15,598 nucleotides of DNA from a bacterium (GTDB taxonomy: Bacteria; Zixibacteria; MSB-5A5; GN15; FEB-12): assembly GCA_043811375.1 (NCBI GenBank), contig JBDRNJ010000089.1:1-15598 (forward strand). The letters are read 5' to 3'. Both the position numbers and the translations under genes were made by a program. The notes below the pieces were generated by a model. The model was given only the letters and a program-made list of their open reading frames with translations. It had not been told where the DNA came from and searched no databases. Shown piece after piece: positions 1,707 through 15,289 of the stretch; position 1 is the first letter of the stretch; each line of letters begins with the position of its first letter.

Positions 1707-3191
1707 ATGAAACTTGCTCTGAAGTTCGCCTTATCGTTTATAGCAGTCACCATTGTTGTCTGGGGGGTTGCATCGTATATTCGCGTGCAGCGTGAGATCA
1801 ACTTGTTTGAGCTCGATATCCGGAGAGATCACGAATCGATTGGTATAGATCTGGCTGCCGCAGTTGCAGACATTTGGCGTCTCGGTGGCGAGAAAGCGGC
1901 TCGCGAGTTCGTCGACCACGCAAACGAAACCAAGAGTCACGTCTCCATAGCTCTTCTCTCCATCGATTCTATGATGCACTCTCTGGTCGTGCAACAGACC
2001 GAGTCATCTTCCGCTATATTGGATGAAATGACAGTCCATGCTGTCAGCGTATTGTACGAGGATAGCACCGAGACTGAATGGGTGTACACATATGTGCCTG
2101 TATCCGACGGAACAACTACGGGTTCTGTGCTTGAGTTATGTGAGTCTCTTTCTCACAAGAATGAATATGTCAGCTCGACTATTCGAAACGCTGTCCTCTA
2201 TACCTTGACGCTGGGCGTGATAGCCGGAGGGATTGCTATGCTATTGGGCGCGGTCTTCATAGTAAGACCAGTCAGGGCCTTGATGAAGAAGGCGCGGCAA
2301 GTAGCCGAGGGGGACCTCCGGAGTGACGTGCGGTTGCGACAGGCCGATGAACTGGGCGAACTAGGCATAGAGTTGAATGCGATGAGTTCACGGCTGGCCG
2401 TAGCTCGCCACGAGGCAGCAATCGAATCTGCTGCCCACGAAACAGCGACCCAACAGCTTCGACATGCAGATCGCCTTACTACAGTGGGGAAACTGGCTGC
2501 GGCTGTTGCCCACGAACTCGGGACACCGCTAAATGTTATCAAGGCCCGGGCGCGCATGATCGCGGAGAAGGAAGTCGAGGGTGATGGTGCCATCTCTTCC
2601 GGCCTGATAATTGTTGAGCAATCAGATCGTATGTCCCGCACAATCCGAGGGTTGCTTGATTTGTCTCGCAGAGACTCCCCCGGCACTGAGCTTGTGGATC
2701 TCAGAAATGTCGTAAATCAAGCCCTGGGCTTGATTGAGCCGATGACACACAAGAACCGAGTTAGCTTATCCGCTTGTAGTGCCGGTACACCCACCCTAGT
2801 GATGGCGGACGCCGATCAGATGCGCCAAGTACTAATGAACCTCATGGTGAATGCTGTGGAGGCCATGCCGGATGGTGGCGATTTAGCAGTGAGCGTTCAG
2901 TCCTTTCAGACGGACGTAGTCGCGAAGGGAGATGAGCACAGTGGGCCGTGCGCGGTTATCAGTGTTAGCGATACCGGGGTCGGCATTCCGCCAAAAGACA
3001 TTGATCAGTTGTTTGAACCGTTTTTCACCACCAAGGATCCGGAGAAAGGCACCGGCTTGGGATTATCCATATCCGCTGACATTGTAAAGGCGCACGGTGG
3101 CCGTATCGAGGTCAAGAGCGTGCCAGGGTATGGCTCGGTCTTTACTGTCTACTTGCCGACCAACTCCGAATCCATTAAGGGAGCGCTCTAA
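1707..3191 (+). CDS. Membrane sensor histidine kinase (TM - extracytoplasmic loop - TM - HAMP - HisKA - HATPase_c), NtrB/AtoS-like
   Basis: Two hydrophobic segments, HAMP (RPVRAL...DELGELGIELNAM), H-box AHELGTPLNVI, N-box QVLMNLMVNAVEAM, G1 DTGVGI, F-box FEPFFTTK, G2 GTGLGL. GGAG SD. Confidence 0.96.
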   Translation: MKLALKFALSFIAVTIVVWGVASYIRVQREINLFELDIRRDHESIGIDLAAAVADIWRLGGEKAAREFVDHANETKSHVSIALLSIDSMMHSLVVQQTESSSAILDEMTVHAVSVLYEDSTETEWVYTYVPVSDGTTTGSVLELCESLSHKNEYVSSTIRNAVLYTLTLGVIAGGIAMLLGAVFIVRPVRALMKKARQVAEGDLRSDVRLRQADELGELGIELNAMSSRLAVARHEAAIESAAHETATQQLRHADRLTTVGKLAAAVAHELGTPLNVIKARARMIAEKEVEGDGAISSGLIIVEQSDRMSRTIRGLLDLSRRDSPGTELVDLRNVVNQALGLIEPMTHKNRVSLSACSAGTPTLVMADADQMRQVLMNLMVNAVEAMPDGGDLAVSVQSFQTDVVAKGDEHSGPCAVISVSDTGVGIPPKDIDQLFEPFFTTKDPEKGTGLGLSISADIVKAHGGRIEVKSVPGYGSVFTVYLPTNSESIKGAL

Positions 3192-4546
3192 TGCGGGGTC
3201 ATATCCTGATTGTCGATGATGATCGCAGTACTTGTGAGCTGCTGGAGGAGTCCTTATCACGAAGCAAATTCGACGTGACTTGGCGCACCTCTGCTGCCGA
3301 AGCATTGGAACTACTTAACGAATCGGATTTTGACACTGTTGTCACCGATCTGAACATGCCGGGGGTCGATGGCCTGGAGTTGTGTGATCGCATAGCGGGT
3401 AGCAGAGAGAACCTGCCCGTCGTCGTTATTACTGCGTACGGCAGCCTTGACACTGCGGTGGCTGCAATTCGTGCGGGGGCTTATGATTTCGTCACCAAGC
3501 CTTTTGAAAAAGAAGCACTTATCCTAGCTCTAGATCGAGCGGTGCAGCATCGCCAACTGAAGGAAGAGGTCCGGAGATTGCGAGAAACCGTCGGTGAAAT
3601 TAGTTCCGCCACCGCTTTGCTTGGCGAAAGCGATGCCATGAAGAGTCTCCGGGCTCTGATTATTCGCGTAGCCAAAGCCGACACTTCCGTTCTGATCTCC
3701 GGAGAGACTGGGACGGGCAAAGAGCTTGTCGCCCGGGAACTTCACAACCGGAGCCATCGGCACGCGGGGCCGTTTATTGGGATCAACTGTGCTGCGATGC
3801 CTGAGACATTACTCGAAAGCGAACTATTCGGGCACATTCGTGGAGCCTTCACCGATGCGCGAAGTGATCACGTCGGGCTGCTGGTGCAGGCCAACGGCGG
3901 GACCCTTTTACTGGACGAGATCGGTGCGATGCCCTTGGGCTTGCAGTCGAAGGTTCTCCGCGCTCTCCAGGAACGCAAGGTGCGGCCTGTGGGTTCAAAC
4001 TCTGAAGTGGATTTCGATGTCCGCATAGTCTCAGCTTCTAACGTCGACCTTGAGAATGCAGTTGACGAAGGCCGGTTTCGGCAGGATCTGTTTTTCCGGA
4101 TAAATGTCATCTATATAGAAGTCCCTCCACTCCGCGCTCGTGGATCCGATATCCTCCTTCTGGCTCAACACTTCATAAAGAGCTTCTCTAAGCGTATGAA
4201 CAGGGAGGTCCACGGAGTGAACCACTCTGCCGCTGAGAAACTCCAGTCCTTCAGTTGGCCGGGCAATGTTCGCGAACTGCAGAATTGCATTGAGCGCGCA
4301 ATTGCCCTCGCCACACACGAGTTGATTACCGTCGAAGATCTGCCTGAGAAAATCCGCAGTCACCGGCCATCGCACCTGTTCCTGGCGGGTGACGATCCGC
4401 GAGACTTGATACCACTGGCAGAGTTGGAGCGACGGTATATTTTCAAGGTCCTTGAAGCGGCGCAGGACAGCAAAACGGAAGCCGCTCGCATACTCGGTCT
4501 GGATCGCAAAACTCTTTATCGTAAGCTGGAACAGTACAAGAGATAG
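3191..4546 (+). CDS. Sigma-54-dependent response regulator (REC - AAA+ - Fis HTH), NtrC/AtoC family
   Basis: ILIVDDD, phosphoacceptor TDLNMPG, Walker A GETGTGKE, ESELFGH-GAFTDA loop, Walker B LLLDEIG, FRQDLFFRINV, WPGNVRELQN, C-terminal AARILGLDRKTLYRKL. TAATG overlap with the kinase stop. Confidence 0.97.
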   Translation: MRGHILIVDDDRSTCELLEESLSRSKFDVTWRTSAAEALELLNESDFDTVVTDLNMPGVDGLELCDRIAGSRENLPVVVITAYGSLDTAVAAIRAGAYDFVTKPFEKEALILALDRAVQHRQLKEEVRRLRETVGEISSATALLGESDAMKSLRALIIRVAKADTSVLISGETGTGKELVARELHNRSHRHAGPFIGINCAAMPETLLESELFGHIRGAFTDARSDHVGLLVQANGGTLLLDEIGAMPLGLQSKVLRALQERKVRPVGSNSEVDFDVRIVSASNVDLENAVDEGRFRQDLFFRINVIYIEVPPLRARGSDILLLAQHFIKSFSKRMNREVHGVNHSAAEKLQSFSWPGNVRELQNCIERAIALATHELITVEDLPEKIRSHRPSHLFLAGDDPRDLIPLAELERRYIFKVLEAAQDSKTEAARILGLDRKTLYRKLEQYKR

Positions 4547-4570
4547 TTCCCCCCGTACATTGTAGCACCT

Positions 4571-4604
4571 TGGGGCAGAAGGCCTCATGAGGCGAATGGC
4601 CCCG
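4571..4604. promoter_or_regulatory. Two adjacent 17-bp imperfect palindromes, putative upstream activator (enhancer) sites
   Basis: TGGGGC-AGAAG-GCCTCA (4571-4587) and TGAGGC-GAATG-GCCCCG (4588-4604). The 6-5-6 geometry resembles NtrC boxes, and the sites lie ~150-180 bp upstream of the -24 element. Confidence 0.6.
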
Positions 4605-4752
4605 CCCCGCCGCGGCCCATCTCCCATTCCTCCAAGACCCTCCGGCCTCGCCGGCCAACAGTCCGCGTGGAGGTCTAATAATATGCGGGACAACCAGTAA
4701 CCCGACCGCCTTTGGTTCCTTCTTTGACCTAAGGCACCCCCACGAATTCGAT

Positions 4753-4768
4753 TGGCACGCCCTATGCT
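4753..4768 (+). promoter_or_regulatory. Sigma-54 (RpoN) -24/-12 promoter
   Basis: TGGCACGCCCTATGCT: GG(4754-55)-N10-GC(4766-67), near consensus TGGCACG-N4-TTGCW, directly downstream of a sigma-54 activator gene. Predicted +1 is ~4779. Confidence 0.85.
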
Positions 4769-4778
4769 ATTCCAACTG

Positions 4779-5248
4779 TCAGAACCGGCATGAAGCCGGA
4801 AAGGAGTACCTTTGATGAAACGACTGAACACCTGCGAGGAACCGAGCGATGTCTGCCGGCTGCGAAACTAAAGAAAGCTACGCCAACCGTCGTAACCGAC
4901 GTGCGTACCCGCGACCCATGGTCGCACTCCACGCAGCACTGCAGCCCAAAAATCGGAACTTGCGGATAGACGTCAGAAGGATCTTGAATTCAGGCTCCGG
5001 CCTTGAAGTCGCAAGAGGATGCGACCAAACCGGCTGGAAGAAATACAGGGATGGCGGCCGGAGCCTGCGGTACTCGGGAGTATCAGAATGCATGACGCAG
5101 TGGCACGAACGGCACGCGATTGAGCTTAAGTCGCGTGCCGTTGTTGTGCCAGCCGGACCAACTCCGCTGGCAGATTCCGTGCAAATGAACATCATCTGAA
5201 CATATGCAGTAAGGGATAAACCCTAATTTCCACAAGGAGATGGAAAAG
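4779..5248 (+). ncRNA. Putative long structured 5' leader or sRNA
   Basis: Perfect 12-bp stems at 4991-5002/5056-5067 and 5108-5119/5131-5142. Further hairpins at 4785-4799, 4889-4900, 4911-4925, 5008-5025, 5147-5172 and 5212-5224. No recognisable protein is encoded and no known RNA family was recognised. Confidence 0.45.
4815..4871 (+). CDS. Putative 18-aa leader peptide MKRLNTCEEPSDVCRLRN
   Basis: AAGGAG (4801-4806) lies 8 nt before ATG 4815, and this is the first SD-led start after the predicted TSS. Stop TAA at 4869-4871. Confidence 0.4.
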   Translation: MKRLNTCEEPSDVCRLRN

Positions 5249-5905
5249 ATGAACAACAAAAAGAGATACGCGTTTTCTGTAGCTGTTTTGACCTCTGCGC
5301 TTCTCGTGACCATAGCTGCCGGATGCGGCCACAACAAGCAGGTCGCCGCTGAAAGCCAAAAGGCTCAGGCACAGGTGGCCGATCTCCAGAAGAAGGTCAG
5401 CCAATTGGAGGCCGAGAAGAACAAAGCCAAGCAAGAAACTGACAACCTGCAAAAGGAATTGGCCCAATTGGCCGACAAAGAAAAGCTAAACCTCCAGAAA
5501 CTCGATCAGTATTCAGTATTGTCTCTTCCCAATACGCTCGTTTTCAGCAGCGGCAGCATCAAACTGTCGGCCGAAGGTACGGCGGTCCTGGGCAAGATTG
5601 CTGAAGTCCTGAAGCGTTACCCCGCATATGAGATTCGAATCGAGGGGCATACGGACAACAAGCAAATTAGGCCTGAATTCCAGAACAAGTATGCGACGAA
5701 TTGGGAGCTCTCATCAGCGCGCGCGACCGCTGTTGTCCGCCATCTTACTAACCAGCACAAGATGAATCCGCAGAGGCTCGGAGCTGTTGGCTACGGTGAA
5801 CATCGGCCGGCAGCTACCAATGACAACGAAGATGGGCGAGCCAAGAACCGTCGCGTAGAGTTTCACATTTACCCCGCGATGCAATCAAGGGTTCTCAATA
5901 AGTGA
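5249..5905 (+). CDS. OmpA/MotB-like peptidoglycan-binding lipoprotein with coiled coil
   Basis: Basic N-terminus, hydrophobic stretch, lipobox IAAG-C and a K/Q/E-rich coiled coil. C-terminal IEGHTDN, NWELSSARA, AVGYGEHRP and GRAKNRRVEF. AAGGAG (5234-5239) spacing favours ATG 5249 over 5240. Confidence 0.9.
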   Translation: MNNKKRYAFSVAVLTSALLVTIAAGCGHNKQVAAESQKAQAQVADLQKKVSQLEAEKNKAKQETDNLQKELAQLADKEKLNLQKLDQYSVLSLPNTLVFSSGSIKLSAEGTAVLGKIAEVLKRYPAYEIRIEGHTDNKQIRPEFQNKYATNWELSSARATAVVRHLTNQHKMNPQRLGAVGYGEHRPAATNDNEDGRAKNRRVEFHIYPAMQSRVLNK

Positions 5906-6028
5906 GGACAGTCAGTTAGGGACTTCGGAGCTAAGCAGGCCGGTTCGCGCGTCAGCCAAGAGATAGAGACAGCGGACCGGTCCTCCGGCGAGACGAATAG
6001 GAATTGAATCAATGGAAGTTACGGTCCA

Positions 6029-7027
6029 ATGCTGAATCAGATGACCAGTCATGAACTCTGGGCGGTCGTGCTTGCCGGGGGTGAGGGGAAACGACTGCAG
6101 GAGTATACCCGCGATAGGTTGGGCGTCTCGCTCCCGAAACAGTTTTGCGTCCTCCACGGCACAAGAAGCCTGTTGCAGAGAACTGTGAGCCGCGTGAACA
6201 AGCTGGTTCCAGCAGCGCGAACGGTGATTACCGTTCCACAGGCGTATCTGAAGGTCGCAATTGGTCAACTTGACGGGCGCCGTATACGCCTCGCTGTTCA
6301 GCCCTGCAATCGTGATACCACGGCTGCAGTGTTTCTGTCTCTATTATATGTATACAAGCAGTCCCCAGATGCCATGGTAGTGGTAGTGCCCTCAGACCAC
6401 TACGTATCACCCGAGGAAGCATTCCTCACCAGCTTATTGCGAGCAACACGTGTTGCGTCGGCGCACCGGAATAGGATTGTTCTGATAGGATGCAAACCCG
6501 GTTGTCGCGATACCGATCTCGGGTTCGTTGTCCCGGCTGCAGAACACTCTGGCAGCAGTGCCGAGAATGCGATACTCGTTTCGTGCGTCGAGGAGAAACC
6601 GAACCAGTCACTGCGCGACAAACTCGTTGACCGCTGCGCCTATTTGAACACGTTCATTATGGTGGGCGCTCTCTCAGCGTTTTTAAAAGCGGGGTACGAT
6701 ACTGTTCCCGGCATCCTAAGTGTACTGGAAGAATTGCACCCCGTTATCGGTACGCCGCGCGAACAGGAAACCTGTAAGAAGGCGTTCGCACGCATATCGA
6801 ATAGCAACTTCACGAAGGACGTCCTGTCTGCTGTGCCTGATCGGCTCTTGCTAGTACCGATGAACGAGCCTTGTCACTGGCTGGATGTCGGTAGACCGGA
6901 GAAAGTTGAGCAGATGCTTCAGTTGCTGTCCGGCGAGGCCAGGAACCTCCCTGATGCTTCGAGGACTGCAATTGTCGGCCCCGCTGTTAATCAGCATCAG
7001 GAGACACATGGTCATGCATACAGGTAG
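6029..7027 (+). CDS. Sugar-phosphate nucleotidyltransferase, mannose-1-phosphate guanylyltransferase-like (no cupin domain)
   Basis: AVVLAGGEGKRL, PKQF, SLLQRTVSR, QPCNRDT, VVPSDHY, EEKP and WLDVG. Start could be 6029 or 6041. Confidence 0.85.
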   Translation: MLNQMTSHELWAVVLAGGEGKRLQEYTRDRLGVSLPKQFCVLHGTRSLLQRTVSRVNKLVPAARTVITVPQAYLKVAIGQLDGRRIRLAVQPCNRDTTAAVFLSLLYVYKQSPDAMVVVVPSDHYVSPEEAFLTSLLRATRVASAHRNRIVLIGCKPGCRDTDLGFVVPAAEHSGSSAENAILVSCVEEKPNQSLRDKLVDRCAYLNTFIMVGALSAFLKAGYDTVPGILSVLEELHPVIGTPREQETCKKAFARISNSNFTKDVLSAVPDRLLLVPMNEPCHWLDVGRPEKVEQMLQLLSGEARNLPDASRTAIVGPAVNQHQETHGHAYR

Positions 7028-7580
7028 TCGATGGACAGAGATCATGGTGTCGTCTCTCGACCGACACTTCCCATGGGCGTGCGACTGCGACACACCTATT
7101 CCGCCGGACCGACTGCGATTGCGATTACATGAGTTTGCTCGGGAAGTGGATGAACAGGTTGCCGTCAATAGCGATGGTCGAGACATTCTCGAGTGGAGAG
7201 TTGCGAGCGCAATGCTCCGAGTACTGGTTAAGAAGATAAAACGGATTCCACGTCGTGGAAGCGTGAATTGTCTGAATGCCTTCGGCCCCCATTCGGACGG
7301 ATTCGTGTGGGCGGTGTACAGAAACAATGTCACGGTGCGAGATGCGATCGATACGTGGTGTCATCATTTAGGATGGAAACACGTTTACATTGTTGACTAT
7401 AGAGCCACAGACTCGCCGACCGACATTTCGCGTTATGGGGTCCATCTTGTCGGCCTGCGCTCGAACTCTCTTCTGAATAGACTTAGTGCGATGAGATCAC
7501 AGGGACAGTGGCAACATCGTCAGACGAACTCACTCCCAGCAGATATTGAACTGAAGCAAGGTTTCACGACAGCTAACTGA
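7014..7580 (+). CDS. Hypothetical protein (~188 aa)
   Basis: Open frame fills the gap between two co-directional genes. AGGAG (6999-7003) precedes in-frame ATGs at 7008 and 7014, overlapping the upstream stop. Ends 13 bp before the next gene. No family recognised, and the 6885 start is unlikely. Confidence 0.5.
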   Translation: MHTGSRWTEIMVSSLDRHFPWACDCDTPIPPDRLRLRLHEFAREVDEQVAVNSDGRDILEWRVASAMLRVLVKKIKRIPRRGSVNCLNAFGPHSDGFVWAVYRNNVTVRDAIDTWCHHLGWKHVYIVDYRATDSPTDISRYGVHLVGLRSNSLLNRLSAMRSQGQWQHRQTNSLPADIELKQGFTTAN

Positions 7581-7593
7581 AAGAAGACAGACC

Positions 7594-8745
7594 ATGGACA
7601 TCGCGATCCTACAACAGCATATACGACAGCTTGCCAATCTGCCCGAAACCGCTGACCCTGTGATATCCTGTTATGTCAATCTGACAAATACCGGGTCGCC
7701 CTGGAGCGAAGGACTTCGAGACCGGTTTGGTGTAATACTCGATGGAGCTACGGCAACTTATGAGAATTCGGATCTCGCCCAGCAGGTGTCTCAGATCCGC
7801 TCCTTTCTTGTATCATCTGAGATCAAGGGGGCGCGTGGTGCTGCAGTCTTCAGTCGTAGCGGAAAAGAGCCATTGTGGTTGACTATGAAGTTCTCTGTGC
7901 CCGTGCCAACCTGGGTTTCGGTCGACACGTTGCCCAACATCTACCACCTGGTAGAACTGAATGATCGCTATCAGAGATACGTCGTTCTCTTGTCATCACC
8001 GAATAGTGCAAGGATTTTCGATATCGCTCTCGGGGAAGTATCAAAGCAACTTCTAATGCAGAAGCCGTCACTGCGCAAGAGGGTCGGTCGCGAGTGGACC
8101 AGAGTACACTACCAGAATCACTTGCGTGAACGAGACCTGCGGTTTCTTCGTGAGAAGGTGGCAATCCTCGATCACCTTTTGTCCGACAAGGGATCGGGAT
8201 ATCTGGTTTTGGCCGGTGATAGTCATATATCAGAGGAAATCCGATCGGCGCTGCCAAAGCATTTGGCAGCGCTGGTCGTGGATGTAGTACCTCTTGGCAG
8301 GAATATCTCAGAAGATGAGATTGTGAACAGCAGTCTGCAGAGCATCATAGCGGCGCAGGAGCGAGAATCCGAGGCACCAGTGGAGAAGTTGTTAAAGGCC
8401 TTCTACAAGGACGACCTAGCTGTGGTCGGTGTGGCTGAGTGTCTTCAGAGCCTGGCCCGTCACCAGGCAGATATGCTGCTCATCGCGAACGATGGAGATC
8501 TCGGACGGGCTCGGTTGTGCCTGGCGTGCGGATGGGCTGTGACCGGTCGCCCATTGCCAGACGCTTGCATGGAATGCGGCGGAGAGCTATCTCCTGCTCG
8601 GGACGCTCGGGAAGAGCTTGTGCGTCTGGCGGGGATTGCGGGGCGTCCGGTGGAGACAGTTACCAAATCGGCACAACTTAGTGCCCTCGGAGGTGCAGGT
8701 TGCCTCCTGCGGTACGCAACAGTAGGTTCTAAAAAACACAGATAA
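7594..8745 (+). CDS. Bacterial archaeo-eukaryotic release factor homologue (baeRF, family-10-like; aRF1/Pelota fold) with Zn ribbon, lacking GGQ
   Basis: N-domain PVISCYVNL and RGAAVFS. Middle domain RYVVLL...ARIFDIALG and YLVLAGD. eRF1_3-type C-domain AVVGVAECLQSL...ADMLLI with CLACG...CMECG, EELVRLA and LSALGGAGCLLRY (compare GGIGALLRY). Confidence 0.85.
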   Translation: MDIAILQQHIRQLANLPETADPVISCYVNLTNTGSPWSEGLRDRFGVILDGATATYENSDLAQQVSQIRSFLVSSEIKGARGAAVFSRSGKEPLWLTMKFSVPVPTWVSVDTLPNIYHLVELNDRYQRYVVLLSSPNSARIFDIALGEVSKQLLMQKPSLRKRVGREWTRVHYQNHLRERDLRFLREKVAILDHLLSDKGSGYLVLAGDSHISEEIRSALPKHLAALVVDVVPLGRNISEDEIVNSSLQSIIAAQERESEAPVEKLLKAFYKDDLAVVGVAECLQSLARHQADMLLIANDGDLGRARLCLACGWAVTGRPLPDACMECGGELSPARDAREELVRLAGIAGRPVETVTKSAQLSALGGAGCLLRYATVGSKKHR

Positions 8746-8798
8746 CACGGGAATGCTCCGGTGCCAATAGGTCCGGACAAATGTGAAGGGAAACAGCT

Positions 8799-9248
8799 AT
8801 GCAGATCTCAAGATGGGAACCGTTTGGTGGTCTGACCAGCCTCAGAAGGGAAATGGACCGCCTGTTCGAATCGTTCTTCGACAGGGATTCCAGGACAGCC
8901 GTTACCAATGGAGACTGGACACCGCGATTTGATCTGGCCGAGTTCAAGGACTCGATAGTAATACGCGCGGACCTGCCAGGTATGGACGAAAAGGATATCT
9001 CGGTCTCGCTCTCGGGCGATAACCTGATCGTCAGGGGAGAGAGGAAATCAGAAAAAGACGAAAAGGATAAACACTATCACAGGGTGGAGTGCAGCTATGG
9101 CATGTTCCAACGCATCATCCCTATGCCAGTGACAGTAGAGGTCGGAAAAGTCAAGGCACAATATGAGAAGGGAGTCTTAGAGTTGGTGTTGCCCAAGAAG
9201 GCTGAAGCCAAACCGAAGGAGATCCCAATCACGGCCAAGAAGAAGTAG
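8799..9248 (+). CDS. Hsp20/alpha-crystallin small heat shock protein
   Basis: RWEPF...LRREMDRLFESFF, WTPRFD, ADLPGMDEKDI, LIVRGERK, YGMFQRIIPMP, AQYEKGVLELVLPK, C-terminal IPI motif. Confidence 0.97.
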   Translation: MQISRWEPFGGLTSLRREMDRLFESFFDRDSRTAVTNGDWTPRFDLAEFKDSIVIRADLPGMDEKDISVSLSGDNLIVRGERKSEKDEKDKHYHRVECSYGMFQRIIPMPVTVEVGKVKAQYEKGVLELVLPKKAEAKPKEIPITAKKK

Positions 9249-9289
9249 GGTTGGTATGAAGATGAGTCCTGCAATTGACGGAGTGAAAG

Positions 9290-9496
9290 ATGGAACAGAA
9301 GATTGGCGAAACGGCTGGCAAGATCTGGAAAGAGTTGAGCAAGAGCGGTGAAATGGCAATTTCCCAGGTGCCAAAGGCAATCAAGGAGCGGGATACAATC
9401 AGCTACCTGGCAATGGGGTGGCTCGCCCGTGAAGGCAAGCTTATATTCCGGACTAAGGGCAACAAAACGCTCGTTGTGGTAGGAGAAAAGGACTGA
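9290..9496 (+). CDS. Small winged helix-turn-helix protein, DUF2582 family
   Basis: IGETAGKIWKEL and YLAMGWLAREGKL signatures; GGAG SD; 68 aa. Confidence 0.9.
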   Translation: MEQKIGETAGKIWKELSKSGEMAISQVPKAIKERDTISYLAMGWLAREGKLIFRTKGNKTLVVVGEKD

Positions 9497-9514
9497 AGTG
9501 TCATCAGGTGCGAC

Positions 9515-9546
9515 AAATAGCGGGAGAATCTCAGACCGCTGTTTAA
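9515..9546 (+). terminator. Possible terminator hairpin after the DUF2582 gene
   Basis: AAATAGCGG (9515-9523) pairs with CCGCTGTTT (9536-9544) with one G-U pair. The U tract is short, so the call is weak. Confidence 0.3.
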
Positions 9547-9618
9547 CGCTTGCCCGGCGAGCAGAATTCCGTTTCGTACGGTAGTCGTTCAGCTAAGAGT
9601 TGGTGAGTTTCCCAATTT

Positions 9619-10560
9619 ATGTGTCTGGTGCCTATGGTATATGCACAATCAACTAGGCTATTTCTGTTCTCAGTCGTTTATTGCGTATTGTTCCTGACGG
9701 TGTTTGGAGCAGGGTCAGATGATCCAACCGGGAGCATCGACAGCGTCCTCGTAGCCGATACTGTCCCAGAATGCGCCGCCTCAACCTCTCTGGAATTCGT
9801 GGCACTGGGTATCCCTGCCCGCACAGACACCGCCATCAGCGGGTCGCAATTTGCTGCAATGACGAAAGGTTGGCTGGGACGTGAACGACAGGAGGCAGCG
9901 TTGAAGGAATTCCGGAGCGGTGATGTTCCGTCGTTCCTTCGTCGTCTCAAACCGGTTCATTTGGAACATATGACCCGGGATGGAAAGACGATCCGGGCGG
10001 TAATTTGGGTCACCCCCGATTACCTTGCGTTAGGCTCAGATGAAGATTACCTGCGGATGCCGCTCACACGGCCCACGGCGGTCACTATCGCGGCTGAGTT
10101 CAAATGCACTCTCCCGACCCGTAAGATCGTGGATGCTATTGCGGAACAAGCTGATTTCAGATTTAAACCGCAGCCCTTACCGCCCGGGAAGATGATGCGT
10201 TCGAGCGAGTATTATGTCAGGCACAATCAGCTAATCGAAGATCAGCGACGCGGAAGGCCATTGGGGGAACTCCTGGCAGGACACAAGAAGGATGTCGTTT
10301 TGTCAAATCGACTTTTTGGTCCGGAGAGAATAGCGATTTACGGTTGGCATCGTATAAGCGGCGAGCCTATTCAACCACTCAGTACGGTGCATGGCGCGAG
10401 ATACGCCGATTACAGCCACGGCATTCGCCTCGTGTACGCGCAAGTATGTATAGATGGTGAATTGCGCTCAATTTACGATGTGCTGGCAGACCCTGACCTT
10501 GCTCCAGTCTTGAGCTATGAGGGTCTCCTTCCAAGAATAAAGCGACTAATGAAATGGTAG
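9619..10560 (+). CDS. Exported uncharacterised protein (possible divergent C-type-lectin/FGE-like fold)
   Basis: Hydrophobic N-terminal signal. Motif-rich core: PDYLALGSDEDYLRMP, TLPTRKIVDAI, AGHKKDVV, AIYGWH, PIQPLSTVH, YADYSHGIRLV. Start uncertain (9619 or 9634). Confidence 0.8.
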   Translation: MCLVPMVYAQSTRLFLFSVVYCVLFLTVFGAGSDDPTGSIDSVLVADTVPECAASTSLEFVALGIPARTDTAISGSQFAAMTKGWLGRERQEAALKEFRSGDVPSFLRRLKPVHLEHMTRDGKTIRAVIWVTPDYLALGSDEDYLRMPLTRPTAVTIAAEFKCTLPTRKIVDAIAEQADFRFKPQPLPPGKMMRSSEYYVRHNQLIEDQRRGRPLGELLAGHKKDVVLSNRLFGPERIAIYGWHRISGEPIQPLSTVHGARYADYSHGIRLVYAQVCIDGELRSIYDVLADPDLAPVLSYEGLLPRIKRLMKW

Positions 10561-10564
10561 AAAA

Positions 10565-11578
10565 CTACTGCACAGTGTCGTTTTCGACATCACAGCAGCA
10601 GCGAAAACCGAGATGATAGTTCCGGTGACTCTTGGGGTCCGTCACTCGACTGCCGTGCCAATACGGTGCTCGCCATCGGCACCAATCCTCGTGGGCCTTA
10701 TAGCTGTCAAAGACGAACCAGCTTCCTTTCATCTCGGTATAGCCGTAGACCTTACTGCCCAGACTTGCCATCTGAGATGAATCGAGCGGCAGATTCATAT
10801 GTTCCGCGGCGTTCCCGTGTAGGTCGTAAACGCCTAAGGGGCTAATACAGTCGGGAAACGAACCGCAAGGATAGGTGTTGGACCCACAAAGCGACCAACT
10901 CCCACCATCGCACTGGCTGTCTTTTCGGCTACCGGTGCCGCAGATACCGATTCGGTACTCATCCCCGTACGCCCAAGACTTTCGGATACCCCACTTCGCG
11001 TTATGTGACTGGCGCATGAGACGTATGGCATCCATAGTAGTCTTACCGGCTGCCAAGTCGAAGCGATAGTCAGGGGGCAACAAAGCACCATCACACGCCC
11101 CTTCCCACTCGTGGGCGTCGCACAGACGCTTACCGAGGATTTCGCAAATACGGGCTGCTTCACTCGCCCGCACCCAGACAACAGGGTATTCACAGGGAAT
11201 GTTAGGGAATTCGAATTGATCGATACACACTGAGGCATCTTCCGGGGTCTGAGTTTCTGGATCATACAATGGGGCCATGAACGGGCGGCCACAAATCTCC
11301 AAGAAGACCAGATCCTGATAATCGACTGCCGTTTTAGCCAGAGTATCGCGACATTCAGCGTCCGAGATCGGATGATTAGAAATAGCGGGATTGCCTTGGC
11401 CGATGTACCCGGACTGCTCAAAAATCGCTCTCAGTGAGTCAACTTGGACATCAGAAAGACCATGAGTCACTTGCATCCGAGAGAGAAGCAGCTCATTTGC
11501 CTCCTTCAGGGTTGTTCGGCCTGCCGGAAGGATCGGCAGTGCGGAGAGAATCATCATCAGAATGAGAATGGCTCTCAT
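10565..11578 (-). CDS. Secreted FGE-sulfatase (SUMF1-like, C-type lectin fold) domain protein
   Basis: Signal peptide, CIDQFEFPN, PVVWV...A...C...GKRLCDAHEWEGAC, SPLGVYDLHGNAAEH, KGSW and YHLGFRCC. GGAGG SD and ATGA overlap with the upstream gene. Confidence 0.88.
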   Translation of the reverse strand: MRAILILMMILSALPILPAGRTTLKEANELLLSRMQVTHGLSDVQVDSLRAIFEQSGYIGQGNPAISNHPISDAECRDTLAKTAVDYQDLVFLEICGRPFMAPLYDPETQTPEDASVCIDQFEFPNIPCEYPVVWVRASEAARICEILGKRLCDAHEWEGACDGALLPPDYRFDLAAGKTTMDAIRLMRQSHNAKWGIRKSWAYGDEYRIGICGTGSRKDSQCDGGSWSLCGSNTYPCGSFPDCISPLGVYDLHGNAAEHMNLPLDSSQMASLGSKVYGYTEMKGSWFVFDSYKAHEDWCRWRAPYWHGSRVTDPKSHRNYHLGFRCCCDVENDTVQ

Positions 11579-13356
11579 TCTGTAACCTCCGCCTTGTCCT
11601 TCCGCAGCAAGTAGAAAAAATCACGGTTGTCGGAATACCCTATGTAACGCGGAAGTTCTACTCCGTCGACAGGCGGGTCCACTTCGGCCATTTCCTTGAC
11701 TAACCTCTGTACCACAAACTGATCTTCCTCAACCCGGTATATGGCCAGGTAAGTATGTTCCGGGGCATTCATGTCAAGGTGCATCGCATAGCTACAGTTG
11801 CATGAGTTTAGTACTCTGGCCATCGTGGATGGTATGGCTGCCGAAAAGTAAGCATAGATCAGAAAACTTGTGCTGTCGGTCTCCTGGATACATGTTCCTG
11901 CTCTCAATGTGCGAAGCTCTTTGCTTTCCGAACCGGACCAGTTGCCCTTGGCCCAGTCCTTAACAAATCTGCCAGGGAGTAGGCTCCAGGACCCAGTGTC
12001 TGGTTCGAGCAAGGGTACACCATTCTGGCGAGCGTATCTGATGTGTGGCAGTAATACCGAATCTTCCTTCTTCCAAGTTTGCATATCAACGCGGCCGTCG
12101 TCATGAACCAGAAGGGTTGCCAGGCCGGGTTGCAATATGCTGATTACTACCCCGTTTACCATGAAACCATAGTGCGTACCATGATTCTGGTTTGCCAAGT
12201 CCCCCCATTTGAAAGCACCATGGCTACGTTTGAACCCGCCCGCAAAAGTGGCTGCTACCTTGGTAACTTCGCGAGGGTTGATCTTACCGGTCCGAACCAG
12301 GGGAAACACGTTGTCAAAACCGTCCGGCCCAGGAAGTTCAGAATCTCGAGATGACTCGGGGATGCGGTCCGACCAGCCGACCCTGGGGTGGTCGGTACCC
12401 AGCGCAAAGCCAAGGTCGAACATTGAAAGGTCGAAGGCAACTAGATACACAAGGGCTGACAACTCTTTGTCTTCTAACGGGCTGAGTAAGCCCCGTTGCA
12501 CCCAGGAGGATTCCTGCTGAACAAGCTCCGGCCTAACAGAACTTACAAATACACCTGCGTACCCGGGGACTGGATACCAACGTCCAGGTCTCATGCCCCC
12601 GCCTGGGTCTCTTTCGATAGTGAAGTTCAACTCCGGTGCATTGAGCGCGATAGAATCCGCCCTGGCAATTGTCTTTAGCCTAACCGGACGACCTCGGTGT
12701 GAGGGATCGGCGCCCGCTGCCTTTTGATTCTGACTGATGCCAGTTTGACGATACTTGTCGCGAAAAAATTTCTCTTTAATGAAGTTGGTTATGTTTTCGC
12801 CATACTTAACTCGATCTCGAAGCAGATCAACTGCCCATTCTTTTTTAGTTCTTCGTCCTTCCGTCTGATTTCTCAGATAGACAGTCCCATTGCATAATTC
12901 TACAAATGGGCGTTTTGTATTCTGAGATAAATTAAAGAGAGAATCTCTGCCCGCCTGCCACAACACGCAGCGATCTCCTGTCGAATCCTTTACCAAAACG
13001 CGTCCGGCGAGTTCGTCAAGTTCCAGCTTGTATATTCCGGGAAAAGCGTTTTCTAAATGGTAAGATCTGGTCACTCCGGAAGCCGTTCGATACTCTAAAA
13101 TGTACCAGGAGTCAATATTCGGATTCAGATTGATGAGTTTGACCGACCCGCCTGGTTCACTCTTTACCATAGCCGATGACTTCACCAGCCATGGTTGTAG
13201 GTCGAGTACTGATAGACCTTGACCGCGAGCGGTCACCAAACCAGCTACCAGAAGTAATGCCAACACCACTGCCGAAAGCCCAAAGCGCCTTGGCGCACAA
13301 GACGATTCCGTGGTTATACTGAAATAATCCAAAAAACGTTTGACCGAACCTTGCAT
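11575..13356 (-). CDS. Exported uncharacterised protein with C-terminal phosphodiester-glycosidase (NAGPA/DUF2233)-like domain
   Basis: 593-aa ORF with a signal/TM segment. C-terminal half has ATFAGGFK, PGLATLLVHDDGRV, ARQNGVPLL, RTLRAG and YAMHLDMN (compare NGGF...R(S/T)A...AxNLDGG). The CDS is well supported; the domain call is by eye. Confidence 0.7.
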   Translation of the reverse strand: MQGSVKRFLDYFSITTESSCAPRRFGLSAVVLALLLVAGLVTARGQGLSVLDLQPWLVKSSAMVKSEPGGSVKLINLNPNIDSWYILEYRTASGVTRSYHLENAFPGIYKLELDELAGRVLVKDSTGDRCVLWQAGRDSLFNLSQNTKRPFVELCNGTVYLRNQTEGRRTKKEWAVDLLRDRVKYGENITNFIKEKFFRDKYRQTGISQNQKAAGADPSHRGRPVRLKTIARADSIALNAPELNFTIERDPGGGMRPGRWYPVPGYAGVFVSSVRPELVQQESSWVQRGLLSPLEDKELSALVYLVAFDLSMFDLGFALGTDHPRVGWSDRIPESSRDSELPGPDGFDNVFPLVRTGKINPREVTKVAATFAGGFKRSHGAFKWGDLANQNHGTHYGFMVNGVVISILQPGLATLLVHDDGRVDMQTWKKEDSVLLPHIRYARQNGVPLLEPDTGSWSLLPGRFVKDWAKGNWSGSESKELRTLRAGTCIQETDSTSFLIYAYFSAAIPSTMARVLNSCNCSYAMHLDMNAPEHTYLAIYRVEEDQFVVQRLVKEMAEVDPPVDGVELPRYIGYSDNRDFFYLLRKDKAEVTE

Positions 13357-13547
13357 TATGATCTACTGCTCCGTTCTCACCAAAAGCATCAGATAGCCAA
13401 CCACAGAAGTATAATGAGTTGTTGAAACAATCGCACGATTCTTTTGGAAAACTAGTTGGCCTTATTCCGTGTTTCACATTTCCAGACAGGCAATGGCACT
13501 ACACGAATTCTTGTTGCCAGTTTTTGGAGTGTATCACGTTATTAAGC

Positions 13548-13561
13548 TTGACCAAGGTCAA
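13548..13561. promoter_or_regulatory. FNR/CRP-family-like palindromic box
   Basis: TTGAC-CAAG-GTCAA, the same geometry as the FNR box TTGAT-N4-ATCAA, in the divergent intergenic region. Confidence 0.4.
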
Positions 13562-13621
13562 ACACTCAACCGTTGAGATCGAATTGAGTTGATATTGAAT
13601 CTCATCAAGGAGTACAGGACA

Positions 13622-15289
13622 GTGAATCTTGTCAGATCATTGATTGTGATAGTAGTGACGACGCTCTTCAGCGGCCAAGTACTTTGTGATCCCCTGGACT
13701 CCGTTCGCGAGAGACTGAGACAGCGAATAGAGGCCGCCAGTGTGCCCCCAAAACTGGCTGTGGGCAATCAATTAGTCTATGCCTCCGTGGCCCTGCCCCT
13801 TTTCTACGAGCGAAGAAGCTTTTTGCCCGCTTGGGTTACAGACAACGGCCCGAAGCCGGCAATTCGCACCTTGATTGGTATTCTTTCTGAAGCAGACAAA
13901 GAGGGGGTGCGGCCGAGCGACTATCACCTTGAGAAGTTGCAGACACTGGATCGTCGGTTGCGCTCGTCTGCACAGGACAAGCGGCCTATGAATCGAGGCG
14001 AGCTCATAGATATAGAGCTTCTATGTACCGACGCCTTCTTGATCTTCGGATCGCACATGCTGTCCGGTCGAATCAATCCTGAGACCGTGGACGCCGAGTG
14101 GTTTGCCAACCGCAAAGAAGGCGACCTGGTAGCGGTGCTTGAAGCCGCTATTGTAAATGGATCAGTCGACAGCACCCTCAAGTCTTTACTACCGCGACAA
14201 CAGGAATACCGGAATCTAAGAGCGGCCCTCGTCCGGTACAGATCGGTCGTTGCCAATGGTGGTTGGGCCCCTGTTCCAGAGGGTCCTGCCCTCAAGAAGG
14301 GAGATACTGGTAACCGCATCGTGGCGTTGCGTCGACGTCTATTACTGTCCAGAGATATAGTAGCAGTACCGACTGACTCAGAAGGAGTCTTTGATGAGGA
14401 GCTGCAAACTGCTGTAGTCCGGTACCAATCACGTAACGGTTTAGAGTCGGATGGTGTTGTCGGCTCCGCTACACTGGCTGCCCTAAATGTCACTACACAG
14501 GAACGGGTTCAGCAGCTCGTGACAAACCTTGAGCGATGGAGATGGTTGCCGCAGGAACTGGAGGATAAATATGTCCTCGTCAACATCGCCAACTTCGAAC
14601 TGGTAGTTATGGAATACGATTCACCTCTACTTTCTATGCGTATTGTCGTAGGACGTTCTTATCGCAGGACTCCTGTGTTCAGCGATCGCATCACTTACCT
14701 TGTCCTGAATCCATATTGGCATGTTCCTCAAAGTCTGGCAGCGGCAGACATTCTGCCCGCGATCAAAAAGGACTCTACCTATCTAGTTGATAACGATTTT
14801 GAGGTCTTTCTTGGGTGGGGAGCTGACGCGTTGTCAATAGACCCACGCGATGTTGATTGGAGCGAAATCAGCGGCAGAAACCTGCAATACCGCTTCCGAC
14901 AGAGACCAGGATCAAAAAACGCTCTGGGTCGCGTGAAGATCATGTTCCCAAACCAGTTTAATGTCTATCTCCATGATACGCCGGCCAAAGGGCTGTTTGC
15001 CAAAGCCAAAAGAGATTTCTCCTCCGGCTGTATCCGCATCGCTAAGCCGCTTGAGCTAACAGATTATCTGCTCGGACATGACAGCCGTTGGAATAGAAGT
15101 CGAATCGAAACAACTTTACAGCAGAGTGCTGAAGAAACTGTCCGGATTCCGGCAAGTATTCCTATACACATTCTGTATTGGACTGCGTGGGTTGACGAAG
15201 ATGGAACTGTGCACTTCCGACAGGATATCTACGACCGTGACAGACCCCTGTGGGAGGCCTTGTCGGAAGAACCTCCAGAGGTCGAATAA
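13622..15289 (+). CDS. ycbB: Murein L,D-transpeptidase, YcbB/LdtD type (scaffold + PG-binding + YkuD domains)
   Basis: FYERRSFLPAW, GVRPSDYH, PG-binding AVVRYQSRNGLESDGVVGSATLAALN, NLERWRWLP, VNIANFEL, VVGR...TP, NPYWHVP, RQRPGSKNALGRVKIMFPN, catalytic YLHDTP...SSGCIR, FRQDIYDRD. AAGGAG (13607-13612) favours GTG 13622 over TTG 13589 and yields a clean signal peptide. Confidence 0.95.
   Translation: MNLVRSLIVIVVTTLFSGQVLCDPLDSVRERLRQRIEAASVPPKLAVGNQLVYASVALPLFYERRSFLPAWVTDNGPKPAIRTLIGILSEADKEGVRPSDYHLEKLQTLDRRLRSSAQDKRPMNRGELIDIELLCTDAFLIFGSHMLSGRINPETVDAEWFANRKEGDLVAVLEAAIVNGSVDSTLKSLLPRQQEYRNLRAALVRYRSVVANGGWAPVPEGPALKKGDTGNRIVALRRRLLLSRDIVAVPTDSEGVFDEELQTAVVRYQSRNGLESDGVVGSATLAALNVTTQERVQQLVTNLERWRWLPQELEDKYVLVNIANFELVVMEYDSPLLSMRIVVGRSYRRTPVFSDRITYLVLNPYWHVPQSLAAADILPAIKKDSTYLVDNDFEVFLGWGADALSIDPRDVDWSEISGRNLQYRFRQRPGSKNALGRVKIMFPNQFNVYLHDTPAKGLFAKAKRDFSSGCIRIAKPLELTDYLLGHDSRWNRSRIETTLQQSAEETVRIPASIPIHILYWTAWVDEDGTVHFRQDIYDRDRPLWEALSEEPPEVE

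Follow-up and report, generated by a model that had tools for sequence, protein, structure and literature searches.

The 470 nt that follow a predicted sigma-54 promoter at this locus (4779-5248) are a real, unusually well-folded, single-copy sequence. Our reading, held tentatively (probability about 0.42), is that this element is a regulatory RNA of the RNAIII/Pel kind, induced by a two-component system through sigma-54, which would head an OmpA-baeRF10-Hsp20 operon as its first unit and contains an 18-codon ORF whose start it is predicted to mask itself. The window, that is the whole stretch of DNA analysed (15,598 nt), is the entire contig C89 of a 3.56-Mb genome that is 95% complete; its features are collected in Table 1. 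A bolder proposal, which we consider rather unlikely, is that the element is the founding member of a class of large multi-domain RNAs not described before, induced through sigma-54 together with baeRF10 (Balon-like) and Hsp20, which would use a long-range fold to gate a concealed 18-residue peptide and would have a role in the stress shutdown of translation. If true, it would be a second, unrelated RNA near a hibernation gene, with a nameable promoter and activator and in an uncultured lineage, and would tie structured RNAs to ribosome dormancy in a way that can be tested.

Table 1. Features of the window, with the evidence for each.
Feature	Position	Strand	Evidence or remark
Sensor histidine kinase (HAMP, HisKA, HATPase)	1707..3191	+	Pfam
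NtrC-type sigma-54 activator (receiver, AAA+, HTH_8)	3191..4546	+	Pfam
Sigma-54 -24/-12 box TGGCAC-N6-TGCT	4753..4768	+	sequence and pattern scan; predicted +1 near 4779
Structured RNA candidate, single copy	4779..5248	+	fold z-score; no second copy by BLAST or covariance model
5' hairpin CCGGC/GCCGG	4785..4799	+	pair probability 1.0
Start signal AAAGGAGT (4800-07) and local hairpin AAAGG/CCTTT	4800..4813	+	truncated-transcript folds, motif count
Long-range helix GAGTACC (4804-10)/GGTACTC (5069-75)	4804..5075	+	7 bp, pair probability 0.97
18-codon ORF	4815..4871	+	translation and start motif; two cysteines, polar, not hydrophobic
Strand-specific 5' domain	4832..4965	+	nested helices 4832-38/4959-65, 4842-45/4953-56, 4853-64/4932-44
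116-codon ORF, probably spurious	4849..5199	+	protein searches, coding score, Atlas
Stretch under one 208-nt RNA contig	4851..5058		run X4, 4 differences, depth 2.7
Perfect 12-bp stem	4991..5067	+	encloses hairpin 5008-25 (loop AGAGGA) and weak hairpin 5030-54
14-bp hairpin	5108..5142	+	12 perfect pairs followed by U-G and U-A
Hairpin TGCCAG/CTGGCA	5147..5172	+	pair probability 0.96
Weak local hairpin over ompA Shine-Dalgarno	5226..5241	+	pair probability about 0.7
OmpA-domain protein	5249..5905	+	Pfam; in-frame ATG also at 5240
Nucleotidyltransferase	6029..7027	+	Pfam
baeRF family 10 protein, aeRF1-like	7594..8745	+	Pfam
Hsp20	8799..9248	+	Pfam
DUF2582 winged-helix protein	9290..9496	+	Pfam

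In 284 other genomes of the phylum the kinase has 14 orthologues; 13 of these loci were fetched (one at a contig end was left out), and all 13 hold the kinase-regulator pair. A similar sigma-54 box, found with a loose pattern, lies 3' of the regulator in 10 of the 13, so the box in the window stands at its usual place, and rpoN is present in the genome, both of which bear out the sigma-54 promoter proposed in the initial annotation. We infer that the NtrC-type regulator is the activator of this promoter. In the orthologous loci a gene begins about 40-150 nt past the start of the box, whereas in the window about 470 nt without a recognisable gene follow it. An ompA gene at this place is shared by one orthologous locus only (G270), where a 94-aa gene separates it from the box. 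In G270 (L065:2277-2561, minus strand) and in G163 (L067), the gene that comes first past the box encodes a 92-94-aa protein without a Pfam family, 65% identical between the two, whose Atlas clusters are hypothetical proteins, most commonly of Planctomycetota. A contig from a related strain covers 4608-4806 with 9 differences, all 8 of those listed falling before 4740.

Downstream of the element and on the same strand follow ompA, the nucleotidyltransferase gene, an unassigned ORF, and the genes for baeRF10, Hsp20 and the DUF2582 protein. The stress operon with a ribosome-binding factor that had been suspected from the sequence is thereby supported by Pfam, in the form of baeRF10 and Hsp20. 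The baeRF10 protein is possibly a candidate Balon-type hibernation factor; an excerpt of PMC10901736 reports Balon-type genes in stress operons together with Hsp20. The OmpA-domain protein is likely a lipoprotein, judging from its sequence, in which a Gly-Cys pair is invariant among 13 close homologues. Protein searches returned 12 relatives of OmpA at 62-85% identity and eight of baeRF10 at 57-79%, and six contig sizes common to both lists suggest that a cassette with both genes is conserved. Several further observations concern these surroundings. The DUF2582 gene lies directly 3' of that for Hsp20 and is smaller than the size limit of the ORF list. The ORF between the nucleotidyltransferase and baeRF10 genes (6885/7041-7580) has a low coding score, no Pfam family and an unremarkable fold. 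The remainder of the window (9619-15289) holds a sulfatase-modifying-factor-like gene, an L,D-transpeptidase gene and two genes (313 and 593 aa) that could be placed in no Pfam family. At the baeRF10 loci of relatives (L134-L138, L140), an ORF judged LysR-like by eye from its N-terminus lies divergently just upstream in 6 of 7; one locus (L136) additionally holds a RaiA-family gene and a zinc-ribbon gene, and in another (L140) baeRF10 is split into three pieces. 6S RNA was not found in the 95% complete genome.

The fold of the element is of particular interest. Its minimum free energy is -181.2 kcal/mol, with z about -5.7 to -5.8; the comparison with shuffles proposed in the initial annotation gave z -5.72, and 0 of 100 shuffles folded as well. 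In the same genome tmRNA reaches z -4.0 and RNase P RNA -3.0. The earlier claim that two perfect 12-bp stems so close together are unlikely by chance also stood, since only 68 perfect stems of at least 12 bp (loop 3-60) occur in the 3.56 Mb and only 2 pairs of them are neighbours within 300 nt, the element being one. Among 209 ORF-free gaps of at least 470 nt, 168 were folded, and z was -5.5 or lower in 8 (2 of 55, and 6 of 113 in a batch for which 5 shuffles and a fixed SD were used). Of these eight equally stable gaps, seven hold repeats present elsewhere in the genome, and one is single-copy. That the element folds better than tmRNA and RNase P RNA and, unlike those seven gaps, is single-copy favours the regulatory-RNA reading. 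Multi-copy hairpin repeats are found in many intergenic gaps of this genome. The sole other single-copy gap that stable (G000:C4:152551-153020, L101:1052-1521; z about -6.7, no Rfam match) forms a long, imperfect fold-back, is flanked by a small ORF and by one that looks integrase-like, is overlapped by short ORFs and is possibly part of a mobile element.

Taken whole, the minus strand folds equally well (z -5.2), which counts against a regulatory RNA. The 5' part does so on the promoter strand only, which counts in its favour: region 4779-4970, chosen after the fold was seen, has z -4.5 and an ensemble distance of 7.3 on the plus strand, and z -1.0 and a distance of 49 on the minus strand. 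Random control windows reached z -4 or lower in 1 of 136 cases and a distance of 8 or less in 0 of 136; the shorter 4828-4970 has z -3.9. Support also comes from the 10 orthologous loci where ordinary genes occupy the 470 nt after the promoter, as these fold less well (z +0.4 to -3.2). On the minus strand, a hairpin followed by a U-rich run (4902-4876) looks terminator-like, at a frequency expected by chance (4 found, 5.2 expected).

Seven stems of the initial annotation proved exactly complementary at the positions it gave (4785-99, 4889-4900, 4911-25, 4991-5002/5056-67, 5008-25, 4971-75/5093-97 and 5108-19/5131-42). Three closing helices that it proposed fared less well: TGCGT/ACGCA, CGTCA/TGACG and TGGCAC/GTGCCA (the last at 5101-06/5146-51) are complementary but are disfavoured in the full-length ensemble, where 4879-83/4903-07, 4824-27/4973-76 and 5147-52/5167-72, respectively, win over them. 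The helices of the 5' domain enclose hairpins 4879-4907 and 4911-25. The motif GTCGC/GCGAC occurs five times in three hairpins (4911-4925, 5008-5025, 5130-5134) where 1.5 are expected, with p 0.013, although the pattern was spotted only in hindsight and hairpin symmetry inflates the count; the recurrence could be a repeated binding site or could allow strand swapping.

Within this structure, AAAGGAGT-N7-ATG heads the 18-codon ORF. As a sequence feature this looks like a genuine start signal: AAAGGAGT-N5-9-ATG has 19 further occurrences in the genome, and in 17 of the 19 the frame is open through the 30 codons printed. The initial annotation had taken the overlapping ORFs to be non-coding, which probably holds for ORF 4849-5199, without a credible homologue, but it overlooked this short ORF. 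Folds of growing transcripts predict that the local hairpin hides the Shine-Dalgarno in transcripts of less than about 290 nt and that, once 5075 is reached, helix 4804-10/5069-75 replaces it, covering the 3' half of the Shine-Dalgarno. The ORF itself provides the 5' strands of long helices, and its stop lies in an A-rich linker. Thus, the element is predicted to fold over and hide the start of its own ORF, and this start signal, of a kind that usually precedes open frames, with its two successive masks, argues for a regulatory RNA.

Evidence of transcription comes from five sequencing runs that hold small shares of 4550-5950, one of which (X4) is RNA. Over 3900-6300 this run covers only 4851-5058, a finding in favour of the regulatory-RNA reading; uncovered parts of the runs were not counted as absence, and X4 was itself chosen with the element's region. 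Its contigs carry neither strand nor ends and its depth cannot rank genes, so that a single low-depth record of unreadable strand also weighs against that reading. In a 20-kb control around RNase P, X4 shows depth in 4 of 30 bins, mainly over RNase P RNA, and DNA run X2 in 19 of 30. X4 therefore has the profile of an RNA library, and a close strain probably transcribes the element, although the sign is weak. A 76-nt RNase P piece (1 difference) stands at depth 356 against 2.7 for the element, so nothing points to abundance at a housekeeping level; other organisms may be the source of the RNase P pieces. Two differences in X4 are listed: A4949G maps to a loop of the predicted fold, and G4994A alters a base of the 12-bp stem, where the partner base is uncovered, a point against the proposed RNA. 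A simple scan of 4500-9700 found no plus-strand terminator, so read-through into ompA is likely; the lack of a terminator defining a 3' end counts against a discrete regulatory RNA.

Homologues of the element were sought widely. A DNA search of 284 other genomes of the phylum gave no full-length match and one of 35 nt, and a BLAST-type search of 60 relatives gave three matches of 30-34 nt, one of them the promoter box. One-sequence covariance models (R1/R2), of limited reach and run without a positive control, found the element alone: the 5' model detected no homologue in 107 genomes of the family, the 3' model gave one match at chance level (E 0.006) in 149 genomes of the order, and five chosen genomes held no homologue either. 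None was found in plasmid, phage and viral collections, and neither BLAST nor the covariance models found a REP/MITE-type copy elsewhere in the genome. For the regions upstream of 20 OmpA loci, no BLAST match to the element longer than 17 nt was among the matches listed, and seven baeRF10 loci gave no usable homologue. OmpA relatives in metagenome contigs (28-60% identity) and viral contigs (28-39%) offered nothing usable for the hunt. Rfam 15 gave one match over the whole window (E 1.1, outside the element) and one over 4740-5270 (E 3.5, 17.6 of 37 bits), neither assigning a family at the gathering threshold, in agreement with the initial annotation, which recognised no known family. We found no description of the element in the literature; supplementary lists of RNA-discovery papers could hold the motif. 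The lack of a homologue in any collection searched opposes the regulatory-RNA reading, since a decayed gene would look alike.

Several candidate matches and identities were rejected. A 23-nt match to G015 is the shared start signal of a zinc-ribbon gene, and a leader alignment to L072 (one of 10 tests, p 0.002) contains many gaps and has the start signal at its centre. Stem patterns returned 15 repeat hairpins in genome contigs and 1 unrelated match in viral contigs. A tmRNA-like identity was set aside, as the genome's tmRNA lies elsewhere (C81) and ARAGORN finds none in the window; so were a retron, a group II intron and an IS-encoded RNA, since none of the scanned ORFs of the window encodes a reverse transcriptase or transposase.

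How might such an RNA work? The kinase and the NtrC-type activator would open the promoter, as sigma-54 activators do; the genes and the box are seen. During synthesis the local hairpin would mask the Shine-Dalgarno, until past 5075 the long-range helix takes over and the whole ORF is predicted to lie in helices. Polymerase would read on into ompA, and a compact 5' piece may be more stable than the message downstream or be released from it by cleavage. By analogy, the folded RNA could then act in trans on RNA or protein partners, and the 18-codon peptide may be made only upon refolding or cleavage, as described for RNAIII.

A rather unlikely alternative is that the element is what remains of the operon's former first gene, its start signal kept, its coding sequence decayed, and its hairpins leftovers or orphan repeats without selected function. 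Position speaks for decay: ATGs lie 62 and 96 nt after the start of the box, within the distance at which orthologous loci start a gene, and G270, the most syntenic locus, has its 94-aa gene in this slot. A single frameshift would be enough to fuse the 18-codon ORF with the frame that stays open over 4828-5196 and ends 35 nt before the ompA signal, and a 123-codon open frame appears in just 4% of shuffles. No trace of the three first-gene families of the orthologous loci was found with protein and DNA profiles in any frame, however, real frames scoring below shuffled decoys, and the likeness to the G270 leader is not significant (p 0.19). The stem CAGGCTCCGGCC recurs in repeat hairpins of unrelated genomes, but these matches share little outside the 24 bases queried. 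Were the element merely a decayed gene, folding z-scores better than that of tmRNA could arise without conservation; decay leaves the strand-specific, well-defined fold unexplained.

That the element is a cis-acting leader (a riboswitch, a thermometer or a leader-peptide attenuator) setting expression of the ompA operon is, in our view, unlikely. The promoter lies on one side of it and ompA on the other, no terminator intervenes, its short ORF is embedded in helices, it has competing helices, and the ompA Shine-Dalgarno sits within a hairpin, all as a leader would have it. Little coupling to the ompA start emerged from modelling (an energy model without ligands or pseudoknots), which weakens all three forms. 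A ribosome footprint forced on the short ORF shifts the unpaired probability of the paired ompA Shine-Dalgarno bases from 0.27 to 0.28-0.35, and that of the ompA AUG from about 0.4 to 0.7-0.8; going from 10 to 50 C moves the Shine-Dalgarno from 0.15 to 0.40. There is also no terminator/antiterminator pair and no Rfam riboswitch or thermometer match. Among the leader, riboswitch, thermosensor and sRNA options of the initial annotation, the riboswitch and thermosensor lose ground, the ompA Shine-Dalgarno hairpin barely responding to upstream unfolding or temperature in the model.

It is quite improbable that ORF 4849-5199 is a real, fast-evolving gene and the structure that of its mRNA. GAGGA stands 8 nt before its ATG, it occupies the first-gene slot, and it was gene-called once (P0001). 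A conserved protein here had been named in advance as evidence against an RNA, and no credible homologue appeared among the billions of proteins searched, although OmpA and baeRF10 have relatives at 57-85%: against 5.8 billion proteins the ORF matches itself only, and against 1.84 billion representatives it gave three tandem-repeat artefacts only, phmmer matches dismissed because their scores were summed over tandem repeats. There was no Atlas match either. Its coding score of -0.10 is typical of shadow frames (61% of 1030 score that high, and 1.7% of 523 real pieces that low), though other cassette genes are likewise low-scoring (0.05-0.26). Each of the two listed strain differences would alter the encoded protein.

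That the element sequesters CsrA in the manner of CsrB/RsmZ is very improbable: its 15 GGA (p 0.03 against 9.9 +/- 2.3 in shuffles), of which one sits in the loop AGAGGA, a csrA gene in the genome and two-component control would fit, but only 2 of the 15 are predicted fully unpaired, no Rfam family matches, and fliW lies about 2 kb from csrA (C72), FliW and CsrB/C-type RNAs being reported as anti-correlated in an excerpt of PMC4894983.

The regulatory RNA that we favour can be set beside several known systems. Few large structured RNAs without a known function have been described in bacteria. Those whose function is unexplained include, in an excerpt of PMC10861870, the raiA motif RNA (ModT), a large structured RNA adjoining a ribosome-hibernation gene. 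The element likewise is a large structured RNA candidate beside a gene of hibernation type, here itself a candidate. It differs in having no Rfam match, in its neighbours (an NtrC-type regulator and ompA, not comFC/raiA), in being neither widespread nor, by any sign, highly abundant, and in carrying a start signal and an ORF. In Pseudomonas, CrcZ lies directly downstream of a sigma-54 activator gene and has an RpoN promoter (excerpt of PMC5113210). The RpoN-type promoter of the element directly follows an activator gene in the manner of CrcZ/CrcY, but CrcZ antagonises Hfq/Crc and owns a terminator, which the element does not. Hfq was not found in the 95% complete genome, and the element holds 0 copies of AANAANAA, which we take to be the A-rich Hfq-binding motif. 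The two successive Shine-Dalgarno masks predicted for the element recall type I toxin mRNAs (aapA3, hok); in the aapA3 mRNA, according to an excerpt of PMC6733600, a transient hairpin first covers the Shine-Dalgarno, and a long-distance helix does so afterwards. The element is unlike these mRNAs in its polar peptide, its single copy and its inducible-type promoter, and no antisense sigma-70-type promoter was found on the minus strand nearby. Type I toxin peptides are typically hydrophobic.

The closest working likeness is to two dual-function RNAs, RNAIII of Staphylococcus aureus and Pel of Streptococcus pyogenes. As an excerpt of PMC12612679 describes them, RNAIII is induced by a two-component system, acts independently of Hfq and has its peptide translated with a delay, possibly via intramolecular pairing, and Pel is the first unit of an operon. 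They share with the element, as far as that excerpt goes, a length of about 470-514 nt, many stem-loops and a short ORF near the 5' end. The element stands apart in its sigma-54 promoter, its short, non-hydrophobic putative peptide and the lack of an Rfam match, and the likeness is one of anatomy, not of membership.
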